64,000 nucleotides of DNA from Candidatus Bathyarchaeota archaeon. GTDB taxonomy: Archaea; Thermoproteota; Bathyarchaeia; Bathyarchaeales; Bathycorpusculaceae. The stretch's first letter is position 1. Each line of letters begins with the position of its first letter. Positions 1 through 17,890 of this stretch are shown piece by piece. The notes beneath the pieces were generated by a model, which searched no databases, had not been told where the DNA came from, and worked only from the letters and a program-made list of their open reading frames with translations. Where the stretch lies: assembly GCA_963715865.1 (NCBI GenBank), contig OY970280.1, positions 1,024,001-1,088,000 on the forward strand. The letters are read 5' to 3'. Made by a program: the position numbers and the translations under genes.

Positions 1-696
1 AATCCAATATTGAAGTGGACATCCCTTGATGTTTGGTTGTACATTTTCTGGAAAGAAATCCCGTACAACAAAGCTTATGAATACGGATTTTCGAGGATAG
101 GCTGCTGGGCATGTCCATCAAAGACTTTGAGGGATTTCTCGATATTGGAGGGGGTACATCCTGAGTTGATAACCAAGCTTTATTCCATTCTCGACAACTT
201 TGCCATGAAACGGAACATTGTCGACAATAAATGGAGTAAATCTGGGGACTGGAGAACTAGAAAGTCTAGAGTTAGTAAAATGAGCGTATGTGCCTCTAAG
301 CCTTGTTCGACAAGCAAAGAGTTTGTGTTTTCTATTAACAATCTTTCAACTGTCTGCAATGTCTTAGAGTTTTTCAAAATATTTGGGAAGATAAAGAAAA
401 GAGGACCAATATCAGTCATCAATGGTACTGATGTGGAACTTTCGACAGTTGGCAAGAGTATTCGAATATTGTTCAAAAACGAGGAGAAAGAAGATCAGAT
501 ACTCCATTACCTTGAAAGAGCACTAAATTGCATTAGCTGTGGTGCATGCCAAGGAGTTTGCAAAGTAGGAGCGATTACGCAATCTGAAGGTCAACGGTTC
601 ATTGATGCAACAAAATGCACGGGGTGCCAGAAATGTCTGATTTTCAGTTGTATTGCATTTCGCTACGGATCCGATCGGATGTCGGTTGAATTGTAA
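1..696 (+). CDS. PAPS reductase-family protein with C-terminal 4Fe-4S ferredoxin domain (5'-truncated by window edge)
   Basis: Frame is open from base 1: NPILKWTSLDVWLYI...YNKAYEYGFSRIGCWACP (PAPS reductase family C-terminal motif), then CISCGACQGVC and CTGCQKC..C clusters. Confidence 0.85.
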   Translation, partial: NPILKWTSLDVWLYIFWKEIPYNKAYEYGFSRIGCWACPSKTLRDFSILEGVHPELITKLYSILDNFAMKRNIVDNKWSKSGDWRTRKSRVSKMSVCASKPCSTSKEFVFSINNLSTVCNVLEFFKIFGKIKKRGPISVINGTDVELSTVGKSIRILFKNEEKEDQILHYLERALNCISCGACQGVCKVGAITQSEGQRFIDATKCTGCQKCLIFSCIAFRYGSDRMSVEL

Positions 697-759
697 TCCT
701 ATCGTTTTGGATAACTGCAGTATTTCTAAGTTATAAGCAGAATCATCGATATTGGTTAT

Positions 760-1155
760 TTGCATTTGAGGTCCTCAGATGTTAAGTCTGTTTCAGGTGA
801 AATAATGACTCGAATCAGGAACCATCAAGTAATTGGAAAACAAGGGGCATATGAGCTTCTAGGACTCCTTGAACAGAATTTGAACTTAACCGAGTCTTTA
901 ATTGTTGACAAACTAAGCAGAATCTTGTCTTCAAAAGAAACTTCTAAACTTACGAGAGAACTTTTAGACATCGCATTTATCAGGCGTATACCTCAAAAAG
1001 AATATTTGGAGCTGACTGATATTGGACGAGAAGCCTTCCTCCTTGCGAAAGTTATTAATGGAGCGTCTCTTGATTCAGTCGTAAATCAACTTTCAAGACT
1101 TCGAGCTAGGCAGCTTCTCTCTGATTACTCAGGATATTTGCGGATGCTTCCTTAA
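760..1155 (+). CDS. Winged-helix domain protein; probably the N-terminal half of a wHTH-PLD fusion
   Basis: Helical HTH followed by ELLDIAFIRR...YLELTDIGRE wing motif; its stop lies 1 nt before the next ATG. Confidence 0.6.
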   Translation: MHLRSSDVKSVSGEIMTRIRNHQVIGKQGAYELLGLLEQNLNLTESLIVDKLSRILSSKETSKLTRELLDIAFIRRIPQKEYLELTDIGREAFLLAKVINGASLDSVVNQLSRLRARQLLSDYSGYLRMLP

Positions 1156-1156
1156 C

Positions 1157-1612
1157 ATGATCAAAAACAGACATGCTGTCGAAGAAGTATACATATGTTC
1201 TCCTTGGATACGACTGAGCGACAATTATCTAGCGGATTTAGAGGAAACCACTCGAAAAAGTCATGGGGGCATCGACTTTCGAATTATTACAAGACCACCT
1301 TCAGAGCTTATTTGCGGCACACCTTCTTCGTGGCATAATCAATCCCTGAAAACACTAAGATGGTTTAAGGAACACGATGCTGATATGGTTAAACTAAGGA
1401 AATTGCATACAAAGTTGTATTGTGCACTCGGAGGAAATTGGCAATGTGCTCTTTTTGGATCCGAGAATCTTACAGAAGCAGGAAACGTTGAGTTAGGAAT
1501 TCGGATTGATGATGAGCAGATGACGCAAAAACTCTTAAGCTACTTTAATCGAATTTATAGTCACAGCACCGAAATATCAAAGGATGAATTGTATGTCGAG
1601 AATCGATGTTAA
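1157..1612 (+). CDS. Phospholipase D-superfamily (single HxK) nuclease domain
   Basis: VYICSPWI, FRIITRP, LHTKLY and GSENLT...GNVELGI motifs. Confidence 0.85.
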   Translation: MIKNRHAVEEVYICSPWIRLSDNYLADLEETTRKSHGGIDFRIITRPPSELICGTPSSWHNQSLKTLRWFKEHDADMVKLRKLHTKLYCALGGNWQCALFGSENLTEAGNVELGIRIDDEQMTQKLLSYFNRIYSHSTEISKDELYVENRC

Positions 1613-2759
1613 CCTGCATGAATGGTTTGGTCTAACCCGAGATAACTATATACTCAGGCCAAGAGAAATCGTTGAGGACAGGAAATTTTATGCTCGCCGA
1701 CCAGAATCAGTCCAGATAGAGAAACAGATAACCAACCTTGAAGTAGACCTTGCAGGTAAGATGTCTCCCAAGAAGCTATATTGGGGAGTTATTGGTGGAG
1801 GCAAGACTCACACTCTATACAATATTCTAGAAGAACTAAGAGTCAGGCTTGATATAGAGGTAGTTTTCGTTGAATGCCCAGTGACAAAGAAATCTCTCAA
1901 CTTCTCTGAACTTTACAGAAAAGTATTGGATTCAATGGGTATGGACCTTATTGTAAATGATCTGCTTCGGGGCGTAGTCAGCAACGTAGTCCAACGCGTT
2001 GGCATAATTGAGCAGGGCAAAGCGGAAAAGGAACTTAACAAGCTTCTTGGTTACGAAGACTTGGCTAGGGCTTCTTACACGATATTAACAGCAGGTTCAG
2101 AATTTAATCCTCTTACAATGTGGAGGTGGCTTAAAGCAGAGGAAGTCTCGAGCTCTGAAAGAGACAGTCTAAGAGTTTCAGCTGACCTTAAGACAGACCC
2201 AGAAGTACTGGCTGACATTTTGATTCTGATTGGGCGATTTATGCAGGAAAGGAAAAACAAAACTCTTGTTCTTGTTTTTGATGAACTCGATAGGATCCAC
2301 GATGCTTCGGTAGATGCAAAGGAGACTTTTAAAGCGGCATTCACAAAGCTTACCGAGCCTGGGCAGTCATATGTTTCGGTTTTCTTGTGTGCTTCCGCCG
2401 AAAGTTCTGCAAATGTACCAGACCTGATTGGCGAAGCCGTGGAAGACCGACTGAAAGGTGATATCAGTGAGATTCCTACAATGACAAGCAATGATGTGCT
2501 TCCTTTTGTAACGGATCTTGTGAAACACTTTAGGGACCCTGCTGCCAATATTAGCGAATTGGTTAAGATCGCGAAAGAGGAAACAGATGAAACTCTGGAT
2601 GAAGATCTTTATCCTTTTACGCAAGATGCCGTGGAAGCCATCAAAGCTGCTTGCGGCGATAAGAAGACCCCGAGGGCAATAACCAGAGCAATGTCCAAAG
2701 GGGCTGGAAGAGCCGTTATAAGGAAAAAGCACGTTGTTTCCAGCAAAGAAATAGAATAA
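1593..2759 (+). CDS. P-loop AAA+-type ATPase, BrxD/DUF2791-like
   Basis: Walker A GVIGGGKT, Walker B LVLVFDELD, WRWLKAE motif, C-terminal YPFT..A..AI...TPR lid; overlaps the PLD stop. Confidence 0.7.
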   Translation: MSRIDVNLHEWFGLTRDNYILRPREIVEDRKFYARRPESVQIEKQITNLEVDLAGKMSPKKLYWGVIGGGKTHTLYNILEELRVRLDIEVVFVECPVTKKSLNFSELYRKVLDSMGMDLIVNDLLRGVVSNVVQRVGIIEQGKAEKELNKLLGYEDLARASYTILTAGSEFNPLTMWRWLKAEEVSSSERDSLRVSADLKTDPEVLADILILIGRFMQERKNKTLVLVFDELDRIHDASVDAKETFKAAFTKLTEPGQSYVSVFLCASAESSANVPDLIGEAVEDRLKGDISEIPTMTSNDVLPFVTDLVKHFRDPAANISELVKIAKEETDETLDEDLYPFTQDAVEAIKAACGDKKTPRAITRAMSKGAGRAVIRKKHVVSSKEIE

Positions 2760-2786
2760 GAACGGAAATACAGGTCTGCAACCTTT

Positions 2787-4232
2787 ATGATAGCTCAGAA
2801 ACCCATAAGTTTCGATCACGGTTACCGCTTTTTCGATCCTCTTAAACTTGCTCAATTTGGTTCAGAAGGAGATCTTATTGCGGGACTGATTAGCGAGGAA
2901 AAAAACCCGGATGCAATCTTCTTTGGGAAGATCGCAGAATTCGATGGGATAATGGGAAAGAATGTTTGGTTTGACACTAAAGGCGCCCATGTAATATACA
3001 TAATAGGAAAACGAAGGGGCGGAAAAAGCTTCACATTAGGAACGTTAGCGGAAGGTTTGGGCTCAGATACATTTCATGTTGGTGATTCTAAGCAAGCTAT
3101 CCTCATTTTGGACACTCTCAACATTTTCTGGACTATGGAAAGCGGAGCAACAGACTCAGAACAATTGAAGGAACTTGAAAAATGGGGTCTAAAACCTGAA
3201 CCAATGAAAAATGTTGTGTGCTTTTATCCTAGGGGGCTAAAAAAACCGTATACTCCTCAACATTACAAAGAATTTGCACTGAAACCATCTGACCTTGAAG
3301 GGTCAGATTGGGCAGCACTCTTCGGTGTTGATCCCATATTGGATCCAATGGGCCAGTTACTGACGGAATTGCATGAAAAAGTGGCTATTGACGGATACAC
3401 AGGGGCAGGATCTTTCGTAAAACCTAACCACAATTATTCTGTTTCTGACCTTCTCCAATGCCTCAGCAGGGACAAAGAAATTTTGAGGTTTGCCACTCAA
3501 ACTATTGAAGCGGTAAGACGATATCTAAAAGCAGTAGAACGGTCTCCATTCTTCTCAAGTACAGGAACCGATGTAAGAGACATTTTTAGAAAAGGCCAAA
3601 TAACAATTTTGCTATTACGGGACCTTGATCAGCAAATTAGAGGATTAATAATCGGGCTCTTGATCAAAAAAATTATGAAAATTCGCGGGGAAACGGTTGA
3701 ATGCGAAAAAAGGCTGGCCATAAAGAAGAAGCAACTTAGCCTTTCTGAAAAGAGTCAGGAACAAACACCTGATGCCGATTCAGTAACCCTGGAAAAACTC
3801 GTGGAAAATGGTTTACCGAGAGGTTGGATTCTAATTGATGAGGCGCATAATTACATTCCTCAAAACGGAATAATCGGTTCAAAAGAACCTCTTAAGAAAT
3901 ATGTGAATGAAGGGCGCAATATCGGGCTTTCTATTGCGGTTACAACTCAACAACCATCAGGACTTGATGCAGCAATAAGAAGAAATGCGGATATCCTAGT
4001 TGTTCATGCCATTACTATGGCGAGTGATTTGGAAGTGACTGAAGGTATGCTGAATACATCAGTGCCAAAGACCGTTGCTATCGAAAGAAAAAAAGTTGAC
4101 GCCCATGTCTTCGAAAACATGGTCCGCGACCTCAAAATAGGCTACGCCATCATATCTTGCGTAAACGTCAACAGAGTCTTTCTCGTTAAGGTAAGACCAA
4201 GAGCTACCACACATGGCGGGGTTGAATATTAA
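2787..4232 (+). CDS. HerA/FtsK-like ATPase (DUF87 family)
   Basis: HVIYIIGKRRGGKS, ILILDTLNIF, ILIDEAHNY, EGRNIGLSIAVTTQQPS. Confidence 0.85.
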   Translation: MIAQKPISFDHGYRFFDPLKLAQFGSEGDLIAGLISEEKNPDAIFFGKIAEFDGIMGKNVWFDTKGAHVIYIIGKRRGGKSFTLGTLAEGLGSDTFHVGDSKQAILILDTLNIFWTMESGATDSEQLKELEKWGLKPEPMKNVVCFYPRGLKKPYTPQHYKEFALKPSDLEGSDWAALFGVDPILDPMGQLLTELHEKVAIDGYTGAGSFVKPNHNYSVSDLLQCLSRDKEILRFATQTIEAVRRYLKAVERSPFFSSTGTDVRDIFRKGQITILLLRDLDQQIRGLIIGLLIKKIMKIRGETVECEKRLAIKKKQLSLSEKSQEQTPDADSVTLEKLVENGLPRGWILIDEAHNYIPQNGIIGSKEPLKKYVNEGRNIGLSIAVTTQQPSGLDAAIRRNADILVVHAITMASDLEVTEGMLNTSVPKTVAIERKKVDAHVFENMVRDLKIGYAIISCVNVNRVFLVKVRPRATTHGGVEY

Positions 4233-5430
4233 CAAGAAAGGTTTCATATACAATACTCATGAAAGTGCTGAACGACCTTATTATGTATCTGCGCTGATTA
4301 AGGAATGTACCAAGCCACGTGAATCAATTTCAATTAACAATCTGGCAATTCTTGTCCACCAAAAACTGCGTCGAGAAATGTTTTTTCCAATCCCTGAGAG
4401 AGCGTGTCCATACATAATTCAAACAGCAATAGAGCTTAGGGTTCTTGAGAAAGATGTGTACAACGAAGGCATCGTGAACAGGTGGGGTGCCAGGGGATAT
4501 GTTCTCAACGAAATATCGCCTCAAATACCTTCAGGGCTACCTGACGACCTAAGGCTTCTGGAAAAAGACAGACTTGCTTTCTTGAAATATTACCTTGACG
4601 CCGATGGTCTTGCTCTGCTCTATCTTGTCAACAAGCTCAATTCAGAAGGGGAAATCAAACTTGCGGAACTGGTTCAAGGAAAACAGGTTGAACAAATGTG
4701 GAACAGCATCATCAAAGAATCACTGTTGTATACAAAGAACAGCAAGCTTAGAAGCGAAATGCAAGAGCTTATGAAAAGCAGCAGATTCCTGACAGGAAAC
4801 CCTCGAGCAACCGGCAAAACTTTGGAGCATATCAGGAAACAAAGAGTTACTCCCCATTTGGATATATTGGTGGATTTGGGTATCCTGGAGAGAAGCCCTC
4901 CACCCATGAATAGAACCGCTGTCGCAGAAGGTCTAAGAATGAAGGATAATAGAATGAAGAAGGCTGCATTAACAAGCAGTGAGAGAGTTGTCTATCGTCC
5001 AAAGTTTGAAAACAACATTAATCGAGTAGAGGCCTTTTTGAAGGAGTTTATGAATGCCCAAACTGTGGACCGCATACTCTCAACGCATGAAGGAGGGTTT
5101 TTTTCAGCCGCTGCCTTGATGTATGGTTTCAGTTTCCCCAGAGTTAGTTTAGAAACAGACTTTGTCCTAATACAAAAAGAAGTCGTTAAAGCTTACGAGT
5201 CTTGTCGCGATGACGTATACCGGCTAGCCTTCATTGACGCGATTTCTGATATAGTTTGTGTTAACTTACAAGTATTTGCTAAGAAGGTTTGTGAGCCTCA
5301 AGATGTCCGATCAGTTGTAGAAAAAATGCACCAAGCTTCGGAGAAAGATGTAAGATTTCACAGAGACAACTATGGAGTTATTACCTACCTAGTGTTAAGC
5401 AACGATTATGTCAAGACAGTTTTATCCTAA
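4213..5430 (+). CDS. Hypothetical 405-aa protein, possibly with several winged-helix segments
   Basis: Long ORF overlapping the HerA stop by 20 nt; wHTH-like segments QTAIELRVLEK and HLDILVDLGILER. Confidence 0.6.
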   Translation: MAGLNINKKGFIYNTHESAERPYYVSALIKECTKPRESISINNLAILVHQKLRREMFFPIPERACPYIIQTAIELRVLEKDVYNEGIVNRWGARGYVLNEISPQIPSGLPDDLRLLEKDRLAFLKYYLDADGLALLYLVNKLNSEGEIKLAELVQGKQVEQMWNSIIKESLLYTKNSKLRSEMQELMKSSRFLTGNPRATGKTLEHIRKQRVTPHLDILVDLGILERSPPPMNRTAVAEGLRMKDNRMKKAALTSSERVVYRPKFENNINRVEAFLKEFMNAQTVDRILSTHEGGFFSAAALMYGFSFPRVSLETDFVLIQKEVVKAYESCRDDVYRLAFIDAISDIVCVNLQVFAKKVCEPQDVRSVVEKMHQASEKDVRFHRDNYGVITYLVLSNDYVKTVLS

Positions 5431-5431
5431 A

Positions 5432-6583
5432 CTAATCCTGTGGAACTGTTGGGAAATGAGCTTGAACAAATTCTGGTGTTATTTTGTTTGGATAGATCTC
5501 ATCTTGTGCCCGTGAAGTCAGAAAGTCGAAGTATTTCATAAGATTGCGCGGGGTCAAATCATCCCCTTGTTTTGATATTAATTGAATTGTCAATTTCAAA
5601 CTTTCTTTGGTGAATGGATAGTATTTGTCCTCCACTTTTTCGTTCTGGAATTTTTTATTGCATAGTAAGTCCGAAATGAATTCGAGACTTTCTTCAAACG
5701 TAAGCGGAGGGATTTGAATTGTACGCGAGACCCTGCTTTGCAGGTCCAGAATGAGGAGATCTTTCATAACCGAGAAACTACCAGAAGCAAAGGAGAGGGC
5801 AAGTGAGAGATTATCGGGGCAGAGGTCAAACATATCACGTATTCCTTGTTGTATCGCAACAAAGTTATTTTGACTTTGCTTTCTTATTTCGGCAAAGTAA
5901 TGGCAATCATCTAGCACCCAAATTAAAGAGCAATACTCGTGGCATTTATCATCCTGATAAGTTAACATTCTGACAATAGAAGATGCTGCTTTGACAAAAT
6001 CCGAATCGTCAGTTAGATTTGCTGAAACGCCCAGAACCGATAAATATCTTTTGGAAAGGCGCTCTCCGGAAAGCCAAGCCTGCGAAAGCAAACAAATTGG
6101 GTCTCTAACAGACTTTGACGTTGCGACACTTCTTCCAAGAGCTAGAATGACGTTGGCAATGTCCATCCGCCCGCAAGCTATTTCATTTGTGACGATTTCG
6201 ATGGCCTTCATCTCTTCATCTAAATTTACTCCGCTGGGATTCAGTTTCGTCCAGATATCGGCGGCGACCTTGGCGAGGGCAATTGGGTTCATAGCTGAAA
6301 AAAATCCCTGTTGGTACAAATCTGCAAATCTGCGCATTTCTTTGGGCAGAGGTGAATAAACAACCGTATTCTTTCCCTCTTTTTCGAATGAGTTTTTGAA
6401 ATGAAGTAGAGAGTGAGATTTACCCGCGCCTACATAGCCCCAAACGCATAGCAGCGTCGACCTCTTCTTTTCTATTGTGTCGGCAAACGACATTTTTAAT
6501 TCTTCAAATAATTTCTTTCTATCCGCCCAGATATCAGGGGATCGCTCCGGCACCATTCTAAATGGCCAACTTTTGAAATACAT
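5432..6583 (-). CDS. Second P-loop AAA+-type ATPase, BrxD/DUF2791-like
   Basis: Walker A GYVGAGKS, Walker B LIWVLDDCH, AWLSGE motif, YPFT...LTPR lid; start placed at MYFKSWPF (6583) so the gene does not overlap the divergent ORF. Confidence 0.7.
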   Translation of the reverse strand: MYFKSWPFRMVPERSPDIWADRKKLFEELKMSFADTIEKKRSTLLCVWGYVGAGKSHSLLHFKNSFEKEGKNTVVYSPLPKEMRRFADLYQQGFFSAMNPIALAKVAADIWTKLNPSGVNLDEEMKAIEIVTNEIACGRMDIANVILALGRSVATSKSVRDPICLLSQAWLSGERLSKRYLSVLGVSANLTDDSDFVKAASSIVRMLTYQDDKCHEYCSLIWVLDDCHYFAEIRKQSQNNFVAIQQGIRDMFDLCPDNLSLALSFASGSFSVMKDLLILDLQSRVSRTIQIPPLTFEESLEFISDLLCNKKFQNEKVEDKYYPFTKESLKLTIQLISKQGDDLTPRNLMKYFDFLTSRAQDEIYPNKITPEFVQAHFPTVPQD

Positions 6584-6659
6584 AATTTGACTCCGTGCAT
6601 GAATTTTAGGAATAAGACTATTATCTCTCAACCTAAATAAAACAATGTGGAAATAAAAC

Positions 6660-7721
6660 ATGGCTAGGACTGGGTTTCTTCTCAGCGGAGAAGGCTTTGT
6701 TTGGGCGCGCCAAGGTCTGACCAAAATTAACGAACTGAGCCCTGGGGACAAATTACTTGGACTAGAATCAGGAAAACCCTCATGGTCCATTCTCGAATCG
6801 GTAAGCAAGAGACCCGGTCTTGATCGATTACTTAGAATAACAACGGACGGAAATGAGATTCTAATTTCAAAAGATTCTGAGGTTTTTGCCGTGGGAGGAG
6901 TTAAAAGGGCTTCCGAATTAACGGTGGGTGAAATTATTGAAACTTATAATATTCCGCAGGAAACTCAAGAATTAATGAATGACGGAAAGCCGATCTTCGT
7001 GGAATCTGAAGCAGGGCCTCTACGAATTGATAGCAAAATAGCATACATTTTGGGCACCCAAGTTAGGTCTCAAAAATTTGAGGATAAAGTAATCATAAAA
7101 GACCTTAGTCCAAACCACGCTTATGAAGTTGCCAAGTTGTGCTCAGAGGCATTGAAGGAACAATTCATTCCACATAAGGTCTATTACCTTGATGGAGGAA
7201 AAAAAGTCCGAGTTGACTGCGTTCCTCTGGCTCAAGCTTGCAGAGAAATAACTCAAACGAATATCCCAAGATTCATTCGGCAGTCAAATACTACGGTCTT
7301 GAGGTATTTTCTCATCGGTATACTGGATACCATCATTTGTTTAAATGAATCTGAAGATCCGCCAACTTCGTTCATTACCCTCGCTAAGCAAAGCGAGTTT
7401 AGAAGATTTGTTATAGATTGCTTACGATTGTTTGGAATAATTCCAATAAAGACATACGTTATTCACTCCTCCCAAGGACCTGCATACGTAAAGACATATG
7501 CAAATCCTAAAGACTTGATTCAATTGGGTCTGAAGTTCATCAAGGTTGAAGATGCACCGATTCTGACGGCAATACACGAAAAGGATGCTATGAGTTATTG
7601 CATTATCAGAAATATCTCAGAGTTTCAGGGGAAGCTATATTTTGTGCCCGAACCTAAGCTGCACTGGAGCCTCATAGCGGACATGGCGCCTTTGCATCGC
7701 CACGCTTTCTCTGATCCTTAA
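6660..7721 (+). CDS. Stand-alone degenerate intein (Hint + LAGLIDADG-like) protein
   Basis: LLSGEGFV..RQG...INEL.PGD (block A-like), AYILG and FLIGILDT (blocks C/E-like), CLRLFGI (block H-like), LYFVP...H...IAD...LHR (blocks F/G-like); no exteins. Confidence 0.7.
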   Translation: MARTGFLLSGEGFVWARQGLTKINELSPGDKLLGLESGKPSWSILESVSKRPGLDRLLRITTDGNEILISKDSEVFAVGGVKRASELTVGEIIETYNIPQETQELMNDGKPIFVESEAGPLRIDSKIAYILGTQVRSQKFEDKVIIKDLSPNHAYEVAKLCSEALKEQFIPHKVYYLDGGKKVRVDCVPLAQACREITQTNIPRFIRQSNTTVLRYFLIGILDTIICLNESEDPPTSFITLAKQSEFRRFVIDCLRLFGIIPIKTYVIHSSQGPAYVKTYANPKDLIQLGLKFIKVEDAPILTAIHEKDAMSYCIIRNISEFQGKLYFVPEPKLHWSLIADMAPLHRHAFSDP

Positions 7722-7987: not shown

Positions 7988-8074
7988 ACGCTTGTTAAAC
8001 GCACTAAACAAGTTTAGTCAAAAGCTTTATTGTAAAAAATATTAAAAACTAATGAAAAGTTAGGACTAAATGAG

Positions 8075-8369
8075 TTATTGTGGCTTCCATGTGCAGTTGA
8101 TTGCTTTATTATCGCAGGCTAACACGCATGGAGCCTTATTGGTTTCGGGCTTGCAGGAAGAGCAGGTGTACTTTATTTTTTTCCGGTGCTCCTCCGTAAC
8201 GGATGCAACGGTCTTATCCTCAAGGTCTATGAGCATGGTTTCCAGCTGAAGTGCTGATTGAGGACATTGCTTAACGCATTTGCCGCAGCCGTTGCACTTG
8301 TCTGTGTCGATAGTTATGTAGTAATCGCCTGACCCATTGCTGTAGCCATAATGCGTAATAATAATCCAT
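8075..8369 (-). CDS. BzdM-type ferredoxin (not in ORF track; start codon 1 nt out of frame)
   Basis: Manual translation: ITHYGYSNGSGDYYITIDTDKCNGCGKCVKQCP...KIKYTCSSCKP...PCVLACDNKAINCTW*. Confidence 0.85.
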
Positions 8370-9292
8370 CAACCCCTTCCGTCTGTTTTTTGCGCCTTCT
8401 CATACAGCGCCTTAGCAAAAAGCGCCGCGCCCAACGCACCCGCAATCATCGGGTCTAACCCGTTTTCCCGCCAATTAGGCATCGGCAAACACTTCACGCC
8501 CAAAACAACCTCTATTCTGCTGACAACCCCAATGTTTTTCGACTGCCCACCCGTAATCACCAATTCTTTTTCTAAACCTACCCTATCGATTAAGTTAGCC
8601 ATGCGAACCGCCATGGCTCGCGTGTAAGCAGCCAAAACCATCTCTTTAGACCAGCCCTTACGCAAGAGCCCCATGGCTTCGGTTTTCGCAAAAGCCACGC
8701 AGGTGCAACTTACCGGCGGCGGCTCCTCGTCCACCTTTAATGAGATTTCACCAATTTCTTCAATGGAAATTTTTAGTAAATCAGCGAAAACTTCCATGCC
8801 TCTGCCAGTTCCAGCTGCACATTTGTCATTCATCAAGAAAGAAACCACTCTGCCTGTTTCATCGCTGCGGATGGCTTTGATGTCTTGTCCTCCAACATCC
8901 AGCACGGTTCGAACGCTGGGTCCCCAAATATAATTTGCGCCTTTAGCATGACAAGCAATTTCCGTTACGGCTTTGTTTGCCATGGGAACGTTAACTCGCC
9001 CATAACCCGTGCCAACAATATATTTGAGGTCACTTACCTTAAGCCCAGTTCCCTCCAGCGCCCAATCTAAAGCTTTCTTGGCGCTCTCAGGACTGTTAGA
9101 GCCAGTTCGTGTTATTCCCCAAGAGTAAGCTTCACCATTAATCATTATGGCTGCTTTGGAGCTGACTGAACCAACATCAACACCTGCGGTGATTATGTCC
9201 TTGTTTGTCCATTTCTTGCCCTGCACTACACGATGGTACTCGCGCCAACGCCAAAACTCAACCTCATCCTTAATTGTGCTTGGCTCTTTCAT
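8369..9292 (-). CDS. bzdQ: ATP-dependent activase subunit, benzoyl-CoA reductase BzdQ-like
   Basis: EFWRWREY N-terminus, AGVDVGSVSSK, VGTGYGR, EIACHAKG, DVGGQDIK, MNDKCAAGTGR. Confidence 0.8.
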   Translation of the reverse strand: MKEPSTIKDEVEFWRWREYHRVVQGKKWTNKDIITAGVDVGSVSSKAAIMINGEAYSWGITRTGSNSPESAKKALDWALEGTGLKVSDLKYIVGTGYGRVNVPMANKAVTEIACHAKGANYIWGPSVRTVLDVGGQDIKAIRSDETGRVVSFLMNDKCAAGTGRGMEVFADLLKISIEEIGEISLKVDEEPPPVSCTCVAFAKTEAMGLLRKGWSKEMVLAAYTRAMAVRMANLIDRVGLEKELVITGGQSKNIGVVSRIEVVLGVKCLPMPNWRENGLDPMIAGALGAALFAKALYEKAQKTDGRG

Positions 9293-10074
9293 TTTTGCCC
9301 CTCCTTAGCTCGGCTTGCCGCTGCAAGAGCTGCACCTAAAGCACCAGCAAAATCTGGAAACTCGGGAATCAACACGTTAACACCTAACTTTCGATTTAGC
9401 GATGCAACAAAACCAACGTCCTTTGCTATACCGCCAACCAGAACCACGTCAGGGTTTACCCCTAACCTGTGAACCATAGATGAAATTCGGTCAGCCATTG
9501 CATCAAAAACTGCCCTTGCAATTTCAGGCTTAGACTCTTGGCGGTGAATCAGCGACACAACATCGGATTCACCGAAGATAACGCAGGAAGCGTTTATGGG
9601 GCTTGCCCGTTCCGCCTTAAGCGACAGCGGACCCATTTCCTCCAATTTCACCTCTAAAGCCCTTGCCATCGCCTCAATGAAAGCTCCCGCACCAGCGGCG
9701 CAGCGTTCGTTAACGACAAAATCAACCATGAGACCTTTCTCGTCGCATTTGACGGCTCTTGCTTCTTCGGCGCCAACATCAATTATCGTTCTAGCCTTCG
9801 GAAAAAGGTAGACTCCTGCTTTAGCATCAGCGCCCATCATGCTTACGGTGCTTTTGGCATAAGGCGCCATTTCCATGGCTGAACCAGTAGCAACAAAATA
9901 AGCCACATCAGATATTTTCAGGTTTGCCTTTTTCAGTGCCTCATCCACTGCTTGTTCGGCGGCTTTGGTTGGATCGAACCCTGAGAAAGCTTGTCCTCTT
10001 GATACAACAGCGTCGTCTTTTAGGATTACCGCTTTTACTCTTTGAGTGCCTAAATCCATTCCAACGGTAATCAC
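9289..10074 (-). CDS. bzdP: ATP-dependent activase subunit, benzoyl-CoA reductase BzdP-like
   Basis: ITVGMDLGT, IIDVGAEEAR, NERCAAGAGAFIEAMARALE, CVIFGESDVVSLIH. Confidence 0.75.
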   Translation of the reverse strand: MITVGMDLGTQRVKAVILKDDAVVSRGQAFSGFDPTKAAEQAVDEALKKANLKISDVAYFVATGSAMEMAPYAKSTVSMMGADAKAGVYLFPKARTIIDVGAEEARAVKCDEKGLMVDFVVNERCAAGAGAFIEAMARALEVKLEEMGPLSLKAERASPINASCVIFGESDVVSLIHRQESKPEIARAVFDAMADRISSMVHRLGVNPDVVLVGGIAKDVGFVASLNRKLGVNVLIPEFPDFAGALGAALAAASRAKEGQK

Positions 10075-10084
10075 GAAATCACCT

Positions 10085-11428
10085 TTAGAAATCCACTCTT
10101 GCCGTTAACATTTCAAGGAACGCTTCAACACGCGTCTTCATTTGTCCCACGTCTTCCCTAGTGTAATCTGTGTCAAGATAGTACACGGGTATATTTATTT
10201 TGTCAAGAGCTTTCTTAATTCTGGTGTACTCCATGCCGTAGAGCATGCAACCGCGCACTACATAGTAAATAACGCCTTGAACATTCCATTCTTTAACCTT
10301 ATTTATCAACCAGTTAATTCTATCTTCATTTCCATCGCTAGACGTGAAGCAGGGGCAAGTGGAAGCCATCAAGTATCGTTCTCCAATAGCACTCAGCATG
10401 TCATCCATTGTCCATTCGTCTACGCCAACTGGGTCGTTGAGAATTCTTTCGCCTGAACAGAGCTCGTCTGCAACAATAATGCCCTTAGGATTAGCTTCCT
10501 CGACTAACGTTGGAAGCTTCCAGTTATCAGGCCAAAACATTGGAGTACCCGTAACTAGTACCCGCGGAGTATCAGGTGAACAAACCCACTCTTTCCTTTG
10601 CGCTCTCTGCTCAAGCTCATCACACAATGCCTCAGTTTTCTCTGTCCACCGCTTTTTATCGTCCCACAAGTACGTTTGATTAACAAGCATAGCGTCTCTG
10701 CCCATAATTACCGGTGGACCCTTACGCAAATCCTGCAAGCGACGGAACGCTTTTGTTGCCCTCTGGGTCTGTTCAATAGCCTCTTTCAAGCTTTTACGAG
10801 TGATTTTGTTGCCAGTAAACTCTTCAATCTGCGCTTTCATGTGTCTTATTTCATCATTCCAAAAGCGAAGTGATTGGGCTGAATCTTTAACCCTTGGAAT
10901 ATTCATTCCCCAAATCGTTTTGTAATCACTTAAAATCTCACTAAGCTTAGTCATTCCGTCACATGTTAAAACACTGATCAAAGCGTCGCTCAGCTCAAGA
11001 AAAGGTGACAGCTCAATCATTTTCGCGCCTATAGTTGAACGAATAACTGGACAAACCTCCACTGGCACAACCCTGTCGCCAAGCTTGGAAGTATCATACC
11101 AACCTGAATTCACTCGGACTGGAATGGCGTCTGCTGCTAAAATCAACTCTGTCGGAGCAAACAAACACATGTAACCAATAACTTTCTTGCCTTTCTCCTT
11201 CTCAGCCGCAATTTCTTTTTGGCGCTGACCAAATAAGTTTGCCATCTCATCAAAATATTTCATTGCTTGGGGCCTGTTAGGGTCAGCTTTCTTCATGCGT
11301 TCAATGTTGTCAGCAATTATCTTTTCAGAAGCAGTTTTTATTGTGTTTCTTAGTTCGTCAATTTCTTTCCTTGGAACTTCAGGCATGAACTTTTTTTCTA
11401 CTTTTTCGCTCTTCATTCTTCCCTTCAC
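10085..11428 (-). CDS. 2-hydroxyacyl-CoA dehydratase-family Fe-S protein, double-cubane cluster protein (DCCP)-like
   Basis: IGYMC, VCPVIRSTIG, LTCDG, ELCSGER, TCPCF, RGC, DTDYTREDVGQMKTRVEAF; seven family-position Cys. Confidence 0.75.
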   Translation of the reverse strand: MKGRMKSEKVEKKFMPEVPRKEIDELRNTIKTASEKIIADNIERMKKADPNRPQAMKYFDEMANLFGQRQKEIAAEKEKGKKVIGYMCLFAPTELILAADAIPVRVNSGWYDTSKLGDRVVPVEVCPVIRSTIGAKMIELSPFLELSDALISVLTCDGMTKLSEILSDYKTIWGMNIPRVKDSAQSLRFWNDEIRHMKAQIEEFTGNKITRKSLKEAIEQTQRATKAFRRLQDLRKGPPVIMGRDAMLVNQTYLWDDKKRWTEKTEALCDELEQRAQRKEWVCSPDTPRVLVTGTPMFWPDNWKLPTLVEEANPKGIIVADELCSGERILNDPVGVDEWTMDDMLSAIGERYLMASTCPCFTSSDGNEDRINWLINKVKEWNVQGVIYYVVRGCMLYGMEYTRIKKALDKINIPVYYLDTDYTREDVGQMKTRVEAFLEMLTARVDF

Positions 11429-12408
11429 TCACTTGTTGACGGTTCTAACCAGTTTCTTGACTTAAATAGTGTCTTATTCCCAAACTTAACTTTCAACGTA
11501 TCCTCATACGGGCACATTTCCGCACACCGTAGGCATAGCATGCACATTGAAGTGTTAATTTTTCCTCCCTTCTGCTCATACACATCAGTTACTTGCGATT
11601 GGCAAACCCTCTTGCAAACGCCACATTTCGTGCATTTTTCCTCGTCTTTTTCAATATGAAGGAGAGGAGCCCACTTAAAACCCTTAAACCTATTCACCAC
11701 CGCTAATGAGGCGCCGGTTGGACAGAAGCGGCACCAAAAACGTCTCACAAAGAATGAACCTGCCAGCGTCAAACCCACAAAAGCAATAGCGACTGCTTGA
11801 CCAATGTTTTGGCCTAGATAAGTGAGAACTTCTTGAACATAGGGATAAGTCAAGTTAATCTGGAAAACAGCTACCGCCGCATTAGTCCACGGCACAACGA
11901 ACGGTATCAGAGGGTCAATCAGAATACTATATGGCCTAAATGGACCAGCTAAAAGCTGCGTCTCCATAACTGCGACAGCCATACTTGGAGGCGGCTGAAC
12001 CAGCCATAAAGCAGTGGGCACAAACAGGAAAAACAGTAATATTGCGTATCTTGATTTGTGCAGTATATTGTTTAGTCTATCAGGAAGGATTCGGTAACGG
12101 ATTTTTAACGCCTTTCTAACTAGAATGGTTAGGTCCATGACAAAGCCCAATGGGCAGATCCATCCGCAGTACAGCCGACCTATAACAATAGTCACTGCAA
12201 AAATAGCAATCAGCACGTAAAGAAGTGGGACGGTAAAGGTGAAAAAGTAAAAAAGTGATGCAAAAGCAACCGCCTGAATTACTAGTCTCATGTAGGTTAT
12301 TCTTGTTGCTAAGTTTTTCTTCCAAATCAAAATGGCGAGCACCCCCGCTACTCCAAGGCCTGCAAGCACTGCGATTCTTAGTATGTCGCCAACGATTTCC
12401 CAATCCAT
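11425..12408 (-). CDS. Membrane 4Fe-4S protein, NapH/MauN family
   Basis: GRLYCGWICPLG, RFWCRFCPTG, CTKCGVCKRVC, CMLCLRCAEMCP; multiple TM helices. Confidence 0.85.
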   Translation of the reverse strand: MDWEIVGDILRIAVLAGLGVAGVLAILIWKKNLATRITYMRLVIQAVAFASLFYFFTFTVPLLYVLIAIFAVTIVIGRLYCGWICPLGFVMDLTILVRKALKIRYRILPDRLNNILHKSRYAILLFFLFVPTALWLVQPPPSMAVAVMETQLLAGPFRPYSILIDPLIPFVVPWTNAAVAVFQINLTYPYVQEVLTYLGQNIGQAVAIAFVGLTLAGSFFVRRFWCRFCPTGASLAVVNRFKGFKWAPLLHIEKDEEKCTKCGVCKRVCQSQVTDVYEQKGGKINTSMCMLCLRCAEMCPYEDTLKVKFGNKTLFKSRNWLEPSTSE

Positions 12409-12429
12409 TCTTTTTTCGCCATTTTGATA

Positions 12430-13140
12430 TTATAAGTGGATTACCGAGCTTATCAATGTGCTAATTCCAAGCAGTATCAATATCCCTGCGCCACCTAACG
12501 CAACCCACTTCCTAAATAACGGTGCCTTGTTAAGAAGCCAACCCGTAACTCCTCCTAACAGCAATATGGGAGATAGAGCGGTTCCCAAGCCAAACATGAC
12601 TGCTAAAGCTACACTGCCAATGGGGTTTGAAAACGGCAAGGAATAAATCAAGAGCGCTACGAGCGGGGGACATATGATTAATCCTCTGCTTAAACCAAGC
12701 GAAAAAGCGCCAAAATCAAACCCAAACCTGCCTGTTTTAGCTTTTGCAACTAGGCTTTTGGTGTCAGCTGAACTGCATTCGCATGGTTTTCGATATTTTA
12801 CAAGCACACTAGCGCCAATTATTATAGTTACAATGCCGAAGGCAAGTGAAGAATACATTTGAAAGGGAGAAATAGCCGCGTTAGATACAAACAATCGAAA
12901 TAAGCCGCTGAATAAACCGACTAACCCTCCAATCAACGCGTAACCAGCAACCCGTCCCCCACTAAAAATTAAAGTTACGCCGATGCCTTTACGGAATCCA
13001 GCGCCGATACCTGCAATGTAGCTTGCAATATAAGGGAGACAGGATGCGGTGCAAACAACTAATCCATATAATAGTCCACCGGCAAACGCTCCTATATACG
13101 GGTTAGAGATTTGAGGTATTAACGACATGCAGGTGCTCAT
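12430..13140 (-). CDS. DsbD/CcdA-like (DsbD_2/TauE-like) membrane protein
   Basis: About six TM segments with CTASCLPY and ICPP cysteine motifs. Confidence 0.7.
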   Translation of the reverse strand: MSTCMSLIPQISNPYIGAFAGGLLYGLVVCTASCLPYIASYIAGIGAGFRKGIGVTLIFSGGRVAGYALIGGLVGLFSGLFRLFVSNAAISPFQMYSSLAFGIVTIIIGASVLVKYRKPCECSSADTKSLVAKAKTGRFGFDFGAFSLGLSRGLIICPPLVALLIYSLPFSNPIGSVALAVMFGLGTALSPILLLGGVTGWLLNKAPLFRKWVALGGAGILILLGISTLISSVIHL

Positions 13141-13251
13141 CCAATTTTTGTTAACCCAAATAATAAAGGCGAATCAATTTAAAGCTTACATTTTTTTTGC
13201 CTGCATATCTTTTTACCTTTTAAATGCAGCTTCCAGGAAGAGAAATGTGCC

Positions 13252-16555: not shown

Positions 16556-17890
16556 TTATTCGCATTCTGGTTCCATGTGCACAGTGACAACTGCGTTTGC
16601 AAAACGCTCCTTAGTTTCTTTTTCAACCTGTGAAGCGATTTTGTGTGCCTCCTTTATTTGAACCTGCTTGGTGATGCAGCAGTCTATGTTAATGTAACGT
16701 TTCCCTGCGGAAGCGTATGTTACTATCCGTTTAATGCGCAGATTACCAGCGATGCTTTTGGCAACTTCGTAAACGACTTTTCTAAGTTGAGCCTCATTTA
16801 CTTCGGCGGCTGGAACCGCCACGCCTGAAGGTTCAACGTGCACGGTGACGTTTTCAAGCGGCTTTATTTCTGCATGTATTCTTCGCTCAATAGCTTCAGC
16901 AATGTTATGCGCTTCTTCAACTGACAATTCAGGGTTCACGTACGCGTGCAAGGTAATATAGAGTTTACCGCCAATGTAGATGGTTGAGATTTCATGCACT
17001 TCTTTCACGCCCTCAACCGTCGCTAGTTTCTCAACTAGCTGTTCCATTTTAGTCTCTTTTTCAGATGGCTCAATATGAATTGTGGCGTCAACATTGCCAA
17101 GGGCTACTTTCAAGTCAGCCTCTATTTTTGAGGCTAAAGAATGCGCTTCTTCCAAGCTCATGATACTTGAAACTTGTACGGATGCGTCAATGAAGATTTT
17201 AGAGCTTACTTTGCGGACTTTGAGGTTTTCGGTTTTCACTACGCCCTCATTTGAAAGAATTACTTTTCTTGTTTTTTGAACAAGCTCCTTTGATGCTGTG
17301 TCGCTTAGTTCCATAACACTGAATTTCACAAGTTTAAAGCTCAAATAACTAAGCATAATTCCAAGGAAGATTGATGCTACGGCATCTCCGTAAAAAAAGC
17401 CTAAGGTAGCTAAGCCAAACCCCAGCAGAGCTATCAAAGTTGAGCTTAAATCTGAAATAGCATCGTAAAGACCAACCTTCATAGAGGGACTTTCAATGTG
17501 CTGAGTTTTCCTGAAAACCGTAACTCTTAAAGAAGCAATAAAAAGAGCGTAGCCGATGGCGATGAAACCTGCAAACTCTACGCTTGCAACAATCTTGGGC
17601 ATGTTCTCTATCAATCTTAGTGCGGCTTCGTAAAAAATCAAGAATGCCACGGCAATTAAGACTATGCCACCGATAAGTCCGCCTATAGTTTCAAACTTCT
17701 CATGCCCGTAAGTATGTTCTTCGTCTGGAGGCTTGATTGAAGCGCGAACCGCAAAAAATAACATAATAGTTGATACGGCATCAAGTAATGCGTGCAAGCC
17801 GTCGCTGAGTATAGCTAAACTGTTAACAATTAAGCCTACCGAAACCTCAACTATTACAACACTAAAGATTGCAATAGCCGAAATTTTCAA
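16556..17890 (-). CDS. Cation diffusion facilitator with three C-terminal ZT_dimer domains
   Basis: AILSDGLHALLD, HTYGHEKFE, YDAISD; three repeats of EAH.IA..IE...A.IH.EP. Confidence 0.9.
   Translation of the reverse strand: MKISAIAIFSVVIVEVSVGLIVNSLAILSDGLHALLDAVSTIMLFFAVRASIKPPDEEHTYGHEKFETIGGLIGGIVLIAVAFLIFYEAALRLIENMPKIVASVEFAGFIAIGYALFIASLRVTVFRKTQHIESPSMKVGLYDAISDLSSTLIALLGFGLATLGFFYGDAVASIFLGIMLSYLSFKLVKFSVMELSDTASKELVQKTRKVILSNEGVVKTENLKVRKVSSKIFIDASVQVSSIMSLEEAHSLASKIEADLKVALGNVDATIHIEPSEKETKMEQLVEKLATVEGVKEVHEISTIYIGGKLYITLHAYVNPELSVEEAHNIAEAIERRIHAEIKPLENVTVHVEPSGVAVPAAEVNEAQLRKVVYEVAKSIAGNLRIKRIVTYASAGKRYINIDCCITKQVQIKEAHKIASQVEKETKERFANAVVTVHMEPECE

Follow-up and report, generated by a model that had tools for sequence, protein, structure and literature searches.

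Do ATPases of the benzoyl-CoA reductase (BCR) type mean that the archaeon carrying them reduces aromatic rings? This question is raised by an operon at positions 8075-13140 of a 64,000-nucleotide stretch of DNA, hereafter the window, from a Candidatus Bathyarchaeota archaeon (GenBank assembly GCA_963715865.1, contig OY970280.1, positions 1,024,001 to 1,088,000 of the forward strand), whose 2.35-Mb genome comes as one contig and is 97.9% complete. The operon encodes two membrane proteins, a 447-aa catalytic subunit of the HGD-D family, two ASKHA ATPases and a ferredoxin. In Bathyarchaeia, "benzoyl-CoA reductase" genes have been cited as evidence of aromatic degradation (PMC12694404, PMC12869995). 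A first-pass annotation, made from the letters of the window, proposed a mosaic low-potential reductase, in which a catalytic subunit with motifs of the double-cubane cluster protein (DCCP) is served by BzdP/BzdQ-like activases, and warned that calling benzoate degradation from bzdPQ hits could be wrong. We find that the feature is real, conserved and mislabelled in databases: it is a system of the DCCP/DCCP-R kind with Bzd-type P and Q ATPases, a ferredoxin of its own and optional membrane partners. The operon likely encodes an ATP-driven, ferredoxin-fed, low-potential DCCP-type reductase, not a BCR.

The catalytic subunit is a DCCP homologue

Among solved structures, the 447-aa protein matches the DCCP of Carboxydothermus hydrogenoformans (6ENO/7YYL) with an E-value of 3e-84, compared with 2e-23 for BzdN, 1e-18 for HadC and 1e-13 for MbdN, and shares ~35% identity with this DCCP along almost the entire sequence, the long N-terminal region included. 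On the NCBIfam double-cubane model (NF040772, cut-off 350 bits) it scores 346.9 bits and its orthologues 324-362 bits, whereas its scores on the bzdN (92.2 bits, cut-off 453.8), bzdO (TIGR03191; 25.5 bits, cut-off 448.6), HadC (101.7 bits, cut-off 700) and HadB (25.5 bits, cut-off 750) models are all far below threshold. An AlphaFold (AF2) model of the protein, with a mean predicted local distance difference test score (pLDDT) of 93.8, superposes on 6ENO with TM-scores of 0.87/0.92 over 428 columns, the N-terminal region again aligning, as against 0.76 for BzdN (8S02_B; 23% identity in the structural alignment) and 0.69 for BzdO (8S02_A). In a phylogenetic tree built with Bathyarchaeial BzdN and BzdO, a HadBC-like pair, canonical DCCP paralogues and 34 family representatives (a quick search, with support from the Shimodaira-Hasegawa-like approximate likelihood ratio test, SH-aLRT, only), the window protein falls in a clade of 100% support within the DCCP family (98%), and BzdN (100%) and BzdO (100%) form separate groups. 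Its nearest relatives beyond the clade, P0123-P0128, are 42-47% identical, and a metagenome scan with P0124 returned a 1.3-kb fragment and one more orthologue of the six-gene operon, and nothing else. Taken together with the six ligand cysteines described below, the structure matches, hidden Markov model scores, tree and fold bear out the DCCP-like motifs seen at first and argue against any clustering with BzdN or BzdO: judged by its sequence, the 447-aa protein is a DCCP homologue and neither BzdN nor BzdO. It presumably acts as a homodimer and carries an [8Fe-9S] cluster, which counts among the marks of a DCCP together with the reduction, dependent on ATP, of acetylene, azide or hydrazine.

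The published DCCP motif, CX19CX18-19CX29CX166-170CX32-34CX32C, comprises six cluster ligands and a seventh cysteine, Cys94, located by the cluster (PMC7317905). The six ligand cysteines of the window protein (C88, C126, C156, C324, C358 and C394) show no substitution among 87 orthologues or among all 55 aligned family members, and are spaced by X37, which spans the missing seventh cysteine, X29, X167, X33 and X35, the last containing a three-residue insert. The residue corresponding to Cys94 of C. hydrogenoformans DCCP is Asn107; at this position the clade has asparagine in 80, serine in five and glycine in two of 87 sequences, but never cysteine, which is kept in 28 of 32 other family members, nearest outgroups included. 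Published class III DCCPs likewise lack this seventh cysteine (PMC7317905). Two further cysteines, C269 and C360, are clade-invariant extras. The first-pass count of seven family-position cysteines stands in so far as C88, C126, C156, C324, C358, C360 and C394 all align to cysteines of C. hydrogenoformans DCCP, but the set consists of the six ligands plus one extra cysteine and does not contain the published seventh.

The two ATPases are a BzdP- and BzdQ-type pair

The two ATPases are 34% identical to each other. The Q-type protein scores 363.8 bits on the bzdQ model (TIGR03192, cut-off 380.2) in a full-length match that includes the BzdQ N-terminal extension, and the P-type protein best matches a generic activase model, CoA_E_activ (189.9 bits), followed by BcrD (156.8 bits, cut-off 312.9). 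Compared with their counterparts in true archaeal Bzd operons, the P-type ATPase is 48-55%, the Q-type ATPase 61-66% and the ferredoxin 51-60% identical. In an ATPase tree, of which bacterial BzdP and BzdQ sequences are not members, the P clade (support 99/98) and the Q clade (100/100) each mix DCCP-linked and Bzd-linked proteins, arguing that the P/Q duplication is older than the split between the two operon types; within both clades the DCCP-linked members are monophyletic (100/99 and 97/100). These shared clades and the BzdQ-model score uphold the activase pair named in the first-pass annotation, and on sequence grounds the window ATPases are a BzdP-type and a BzdQ-type protein. Q proteins beside a DCCP gene score 340-398 bits on the BzdQ model and those beside true BzdNO 364-391 bits. 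The model is thus blind to the difference between DCCP-linked and Bzd-linked Q subunits, which explains database names such as "bzd-type benzoyl-CoA reductase Q" for the Q subunit at JGI. NCBI names relatives "2-hydroxyacyl-CoA dehydratase" and "acyl-CoA dehydratase activase". The cluster cysteines, 125 and 164 in the P-type and 158 and 198 in the Q-type protein, are kept as pairs in every orthologue. Both ATPases match MbdPQ, a solved heterodimer, and would be expected to form a P/Q heterodimer as well.

The P/Q/ferredoxin unit accompanies several enzymes of the family

Wherever a contig end does not cut the locus, the DCCP gene, both ATPase genes and the ferredoxin gene are all there (80 loci; ferredoxin 75/80), and the DCCP gene occurs in 23 of the 24 sampled genomes of the genus. 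At the level of the family, the operon is carried by 20 of 27 sampled genomes. Conservation of the cluster in about 80 Bathyarchaeia loci argues that the six-gene arrangement is not due to chance. Of 201 evenly sampled Bathyarchaeia genomes, 32 have a BzdQ-like gene, which lies beside the DCCP type in 25, beside BzdNO in five and at a contig end in two; no genome of this sample has both operon types. A phylum-level sample added two DCCP-type and five Bzd-type operons outside the class. Genuine and complete Bzd operons are found in other Bathyarchaeia families and in other Thermoproteota (loci L099, L101, L103, L115-L118 and L120), ordered as BzdN, BzdO, P, Q, a 94-aa ferredoxin and usually an 830-aa GltD/NuoG-like flavoprotein; the BzdO proteins of the class sample score 544-641 bits, above the cut-off. 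The operon at L099 (L099:6551-13566) also has a Had-like dehydrogenase nearby. The window operon shares the P-Q-ferredoxin order with archaeal Bzd operons and with BzdNOPQ plus BzdM (8S02; MbdONPQ, 9GAI), but has a DCCP gene in place of BzdN and BzdO, has no GltD/NuoG-like flavoprotein after the ferredoxin, and belongs to a genome with no downstream ring-processing genes.

Sibling genomes carry, in addition, a canonical DCCP paralogue (L098, L110 and L111), which is absent from the window genome and 38% identical to the window DCCP. It scores 478-498 bits on NF040772 and has all six ligands as well as the seventh cysteine. In G013 and G222, which belong to the window's genus, the paralogue lies between a DsrE/TusD-like gene and SelD (NF010705, 332.7 bits, cut-off 291), with a LysR regulator adjoining, and has no ATPase of its own. 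As these genomes still contain only the operon's two ATPase genes, the canonical DCCP probably borrows the P/Q pair. In G136, from another family, SelD, the canonical DCCP and a single ATPase are adjacent, and the single-ATPase form is represented by L111. The adjacency of canonical DCCP and SelD fits the proposed selenium link of DCCPs, a close DCCP-SelD association having been described in the Haft preprint. G030 has BzdNO and a HadBC-like pair, yet one P/Q pair only. The HadBC-like heterodimer pair of this genome (372 and 403 aa; L096:8056-10388) has no adjacent ATPase, leaving a single P/Q pair for three enzymes of the family. Where a genome has one ATPase pair only, that pair probably works for all the family's enzymes in the genome, and the P/Q/ferredoxin unit is better read as a general electron-activating module for this enzyme family in these archaea. 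A low-potential reductase remains the reading we favour, but the word "mosaic" in the first proposal overstates its oddity, for the P/Q/ferredoxin unit is the only activase module here and goes with BzdNO, a HadBC-like pair or a canonical DCCP, according to what the genome contains.

The genome lacks the rest of a benzoyl-CoA pathway

Across the 2.35-Mb genome there is one PF06050 gene, in keeping with the single dehydratase-family gene noted at first, and the only PF01869 genes are those of the P- and Q-type ATPases. The BzdO model (TIGR03191) has no match in the genome, and a search for bzdNO elsewhere, as the first-pass annotation had advised, found none; BzdO is the subunit in which the substrate site and the aqua-[4Fe-4S] cluster reside (PMC11971306). 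Dienoyl-CoA hydratase (TIGR03189) and Oah (TIGR03200) likewise have no match at E <= 0.001 in the whole genome, with models that in control genomes pick up any crotonase-family protein. A comparable case has been reported in Bathyarchaeum tardum M17C, which has adjacent "BcrACD" genes without BcrB and no ligases, and whose growth is inhibited by benzoate (PMC10477458). That cluster, filed in the same paper as an incomplete BCR, comprises one HGD-D-type subunit and two ATPases with no second catalytic subunit or CoA ligases, and as described in the paper (the comparison is by description, not by sequence) it appears to be the same arrangement as the window operon. No paper found in a literature search describes a DCCP with a P/Q-type ATPase pair, or treats this arrangement as a DCCP system, and both outcomes that the first-pass annotation had named as refuting its reading turned out in favour of that reading. 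The early caution about bzdPQ hits was well placed: with neither BzdNO nor a downstream pathway in the genome, the databases and papers that take the six-gene operon for aromatic-ring degradation are very probably mistaken.

Operon organization, ferredoxin start and membrane proteins

Positions 8075-13140 are fully occupied by the six minus-strand genes (Table 1), whose co-orientation and close packing, already reported from the first reading, are confirmed by gaps of 6-21 nt and overlaps of 4 nt. The DsbD_2 gene is followed after 21 nt by the NapH-like gene, the stop of which overlaps the DCCP start by 4 nt; a 10-nt gap separates DCCP from the P-type ATPase gene, the P and Q genes overlap by 4 nt, and 6 nt separate Q from the ferredoxin gene. 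The first-pass coordinates span all six genes, but its description left out both membrane genes. Candidate TATA-like boxes, read by eye, lie 21-43 nt 5' of the DsbD_2 gene, and a candidate terminator follows the ferredoxin stop. No Rfam families or tRNAs were found in the window.

Table 1. Features of the operon and its surroundings (window positions) and loci of the canonical DCCP paralogue (positions within the named locus)
Feature	Position	Strand	Evidence or remark
DsbD_2/TauE-SafE/UreH-like polytopic membrane protein, 236 aa	12430..13140	-	PF13386, 66.8 bits
NapH/NosR-type membrane polyferredoxin, 327 aa	11425..12408	-	Fer4_5 x2, Fer4 x2
HGD-D family catalytic subunit, DCCP homologue, 447 aa	10085..11428	-	PF06050, 329 bits
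P-type (BzdP/BcrD-position) ASKHA ATPase, BcrAD_BadFG, 261 aa	9289..10074	-	PF01869, 153 bits
Q-type (BzdQ-like) ASKHA ATPase, BcrAD_BadFG, 307 aa	8369..9292	-	PF01869
2x[4Fe-4S] ferredoxin, 95 aa, BzdM position	8075..8362	-	Fer4 family matches, open frame
Candidate archaeal promoter, A/T-rich TATA-like boxes TTTAAAT and TTTATTA	13158..13183	-	By eye, putative
Candidate archaeal terminator, three oligo-T runs just 3' of ferredoxin stop	8034..8058	-	By eye, putative
CARDB-domain surface protein, 751 aa	13252-15507	-	
Cation-diffusion-facilitator (CDF) metal efflux protein	16556-17890	-	
Canonical DCCP paralogue	L110:3618-6671		SelD directly beside
Canonical DCCP paralogue	L098:5926-8977		SelD directly beside
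Canonical DCCP paralogue	L111:3352-6606		SelD directly beside

The ferredoxin, with its CxxCxxCxxxCP and CxxCx8CxxxC motifs, does occupy the BzdM position, as first proposed, but its reading frame is 95 aa long rather than the 53 aa to which standard start rules and ORF callers shorten it. Towards its 5' side the frame stays open as far as the stop codon of the gene before it, and the ferredoxin gene has no ATG, GTG or TTG start; the ATT at 8362-8360 (minus strand) aligns with the ATG, TTG or GTG of most orthologues. In 29 of the 82 DCCP-operon loci with a readable 5' end, the window included, this position is ATT, ATA, ATC, GTT, GTA or TTT, a pattern that suggests non-canonical initiation of the ferredoxin gene. 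Since the two genes share a frame here, we considered whether translation might read through the Q-ATPase stop into the ferredoxin, and rejected this because in most orthologues the genes are in different frames and the ferredoxin has an ordinary start codon.

Of the two membrane proteins, the NapH-like one bears CX3CP and CX2CP motifs and two [4Fe-4S] motifs, and all 12 of its cysteines are invariant in 70 orthologues. It scores 72.9 bits on the napH model (TIGR02163), far under the cut-off of 213, and its counterparts in other families are 390-440 aa long and only ~40% identical. It shares the CX3CP and the two [4Fe-4S] motifs on a polytopic membrane protein with the NapH/NosR/CcoG polyferredoxins, but no Nap, Nos or Cco partner genes accompany it, and both window membrane proteins are coupled to a cytoplasmic ATP-driven reductase instead. 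The DsbD_2 protein belongs, like the CcdA/DsbD, TauE and UreH membrane superfamily, to the DsbD_2 fold family, with cysteines in the first and fourth hydrophobic segments; all 64 orthologues keep C30, C34 and C157, and 62 of them C122. Its nearest Atlas clusters are named "sulfite exporter TauE/SafE" and "UreH-like TM", and it may be a thiol relay or a permease. A PDB sequence search gave no match for the DsbD_2 protein and matched the NapH-like protein to generic ferredoxin domains only. Complex prediction for the two proteins with alignments scored 0.00, which is no verdict and counts neither way.

In most loci the operon is immediately preceded, on the same strand, by the gene of a surface protein that combines an N-terminal membrane anchor with CARDB domains and many N-x-S/T sites. 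A distant family still has this gene, with a product 35-39% identical, and there (L119) its stop runs 4 nt into the start of the DsbD_2 gene; the protein may be a seventh member of the unit. Further upstream, the CDF metal efflux protein has three ZT_dimer domains instead of one, and its gene shows synteny with the operon across many loci of this genus. On the other side, no gene 3' of the ferredoxin (window 1-7721) has a counterpart in the 80 related loci.

Proposed mechanism and competing readings

For the ATP-driven DCCP-type reductase that we favour, electrons would enter through the operon ferredoxin, with either general metabolism or the NapH-like membrane polyferredoxin as their source, and pass to the P/Q heterodimer, which would hold one bridging [4Fe-4S] cluster on Cys125/164 and Cys158/198. 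ATP hydrolysis would then drive an electron uphill to the [8Fe-9S] cluster held by the six invariant cysteines of the 447-aa homodimer, where a small substrate other than a CoA ester would be reduced. In C. hydrogenoformans DCCP, the N-terminal region leaves a channel too narrow for CoA esters (PMC7317905), and the N-terminal region of the window protein aligns with that of 6ENO, which by analogy points to a small substrate here as well. The NapH-like and DsbD_2/TauE-like proteins would be accessory and dispensable, supplying electrons or substrate, and the former may replace, from the membrane, the soluble flavoprotein of Bzd operons, itself a likely electron-input unit. This scheme presumes the direction in which electrons flow, a small substrate and the roles given to the membrane proteins. 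Selenium was set aside as a role for the window DCCP: it is probably not the substrate because no SelD over the cut-off is present in the genome, and the absence of both SelD and the canonical paralogue argues that the Asn107 clade probably acts on a different substrate. Several observations weigh against the favoured mechanism. The score of the 447-aa protein on NF040772 is 3 bits below the NCBI cut-off; the seventh cysteine, by the cluster opening, is lost, so that the chemistry may differ from that of the characterised DCCP; and the latter uses a homodimeric reductase, not a P/Q pair. In addition, whatever roles the membrane proteins may have are drawn solely from synteny and invariant cysteines, and about one locus in eight lacks an adjacent NapH-like gene (~10/80) and as many lack the DsbD_2 gene (~11/80), the two losses being independent and L055 lacking both.

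Two readings of the operon fare worst. A new, simplified aromatic-ring reductase, in which a homodimeric DCCP-like subunit reduces benzoyl-CoA or a CoA-free lignin-derived aromatic by means of the Bzd ATPase module, would account for the orthology of ATPases and ferredoxin to those of real Bzd operons, for the JGI name of the Q subunit and for the literature tying Bathyarchaeia to lignin and aromatics (PMC12694404). We nevertheless consider it very unlikely, given that the genome contains neither a BzdO-type subunit nor any crotonase-family ring-processing gene that could be found, that B. tardum is inhibited by benzoate and has a genome without ligases (PMC10477458), and that the same ATPase pair also partners enzymes of the family other than BCR. 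A 2-hydroxyacyl-CoA dehydratase-type radical enzyme of amino-acid fermentation with its activator, to which the Pfam family HGD-D and the NCBI names of relatives would point, is hardly credible: such an enzyme needs two different subunits and the genome has one HGD-D gene, the HadC and HadB scores are 101.7 and 25.5 bits against cut-offs of 700 and 750, and the cysteines follow the six-Cys double-cubane pattern instead of the three-Cys pattern of dehydratases (PMC7317905).

Other readings keep the double-cubane protein and shift its task. It could reduce an inorganic chalcogen, oxyanion or metal species (sulfur, tellurium, arsenic or a metal ion) moved by the TauE/UreH-like permease, in parallel with the selenium link of canonical DCCP. 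The position of the canonical gene between a DsrE-like gene and SelD in sibling genomes, the DCCP-SelD association of the Haft preprint, the sulfite-exporter and UreH-like metal permease names of the membrane protein's nearest clusters and the syntenic CDF metal-efflux gene all speak for this; yet the genome has no SelD over the cut-off, the window clade is distinct from the SelD-linked paralogue in identity (38%) and tree position, the permease names are automatic labels and the permease itself is absent from some loci, and we hold this reading to be unlikely. It is improbable that the double-cubane protein is instead an electron store or relay feeding the NapH-like and DsbD_2 proteins, which would reduce something in or beyond the membrane. 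The [8Fe-9S] cluster of BzdN does act as an electron transfer and storage cofactor (PMC11971306), the napH-like stop and the DCCP start overlap by 4 nt, the 12 NapH and three DsbD_2 cysteines are invariant and the membrane-anchored CARDB protein is a frequent upstream neighbour; however, the cluster of the characterised DCCP is itself the site of substrate reduction, and across the 80 loci it is the membrane genes that are lost, both together in L055, whereas DCCP, ATPases and ferredoxin are always kept.

Implications for Bathyarchaeia and the DCCP family

Among the closest known systems is the DCCP/DCCP-R system of C. hydrogenoformans (CHY_0487/0488; 6ENO, 7YYL, 7YZM), with which the window operon shares the six-ligand spacing, a single catalytic gene and an ATP-dependent ASKHA partner. 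The window system differs in having two diverged Bzd P/Q paralogues instead of one homodimeric DCCP-R, in its dedicated ferredoxin and two membrane redox/transport proteins, and in its archaeal host. Bathyarchaeia are among the most abundant archaea of soils, peat and sediments, and since 25 of the 32 BzdQ-like genes sampled lie in the DCCP operon and only five in BzdNO operons, BzdQ or BcrA/D hits taken alone overcount aromatic-ring reduction in these organisms. The P/Q/ferredoxin module, apparently common to BCR, dehydratase-like and DCCP enzymes, also bears on the origin of activase-client specificity.

The DCCP family is one without a known physiological function, and the clade described here is conserved and near-universal in its genus. 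Its distinct active-site surroundings and defined partners make it a tractable route to DCCP function. A bolder and doubtful proposal is that the clade represents a fourth, undescribed double-cubane class, recognisable by six cysteines with asparagine in place of the seventh, by a heterodimeric P/Q ATPase, by a dedicated ferredoxin and by membrane partners that are optional, and having a membrane-linked job: it might reduce an inorganic or metal species moved by the TauE/UreH-like protein, or send ATP-boosted electrons through the NapH-like and DsbD_2 proteins to an acceptor within the membrane or outside it. If true, this membrane-linked class would provide the first physiological role for the DCCP family, in abundant archaea of soils and sediments.

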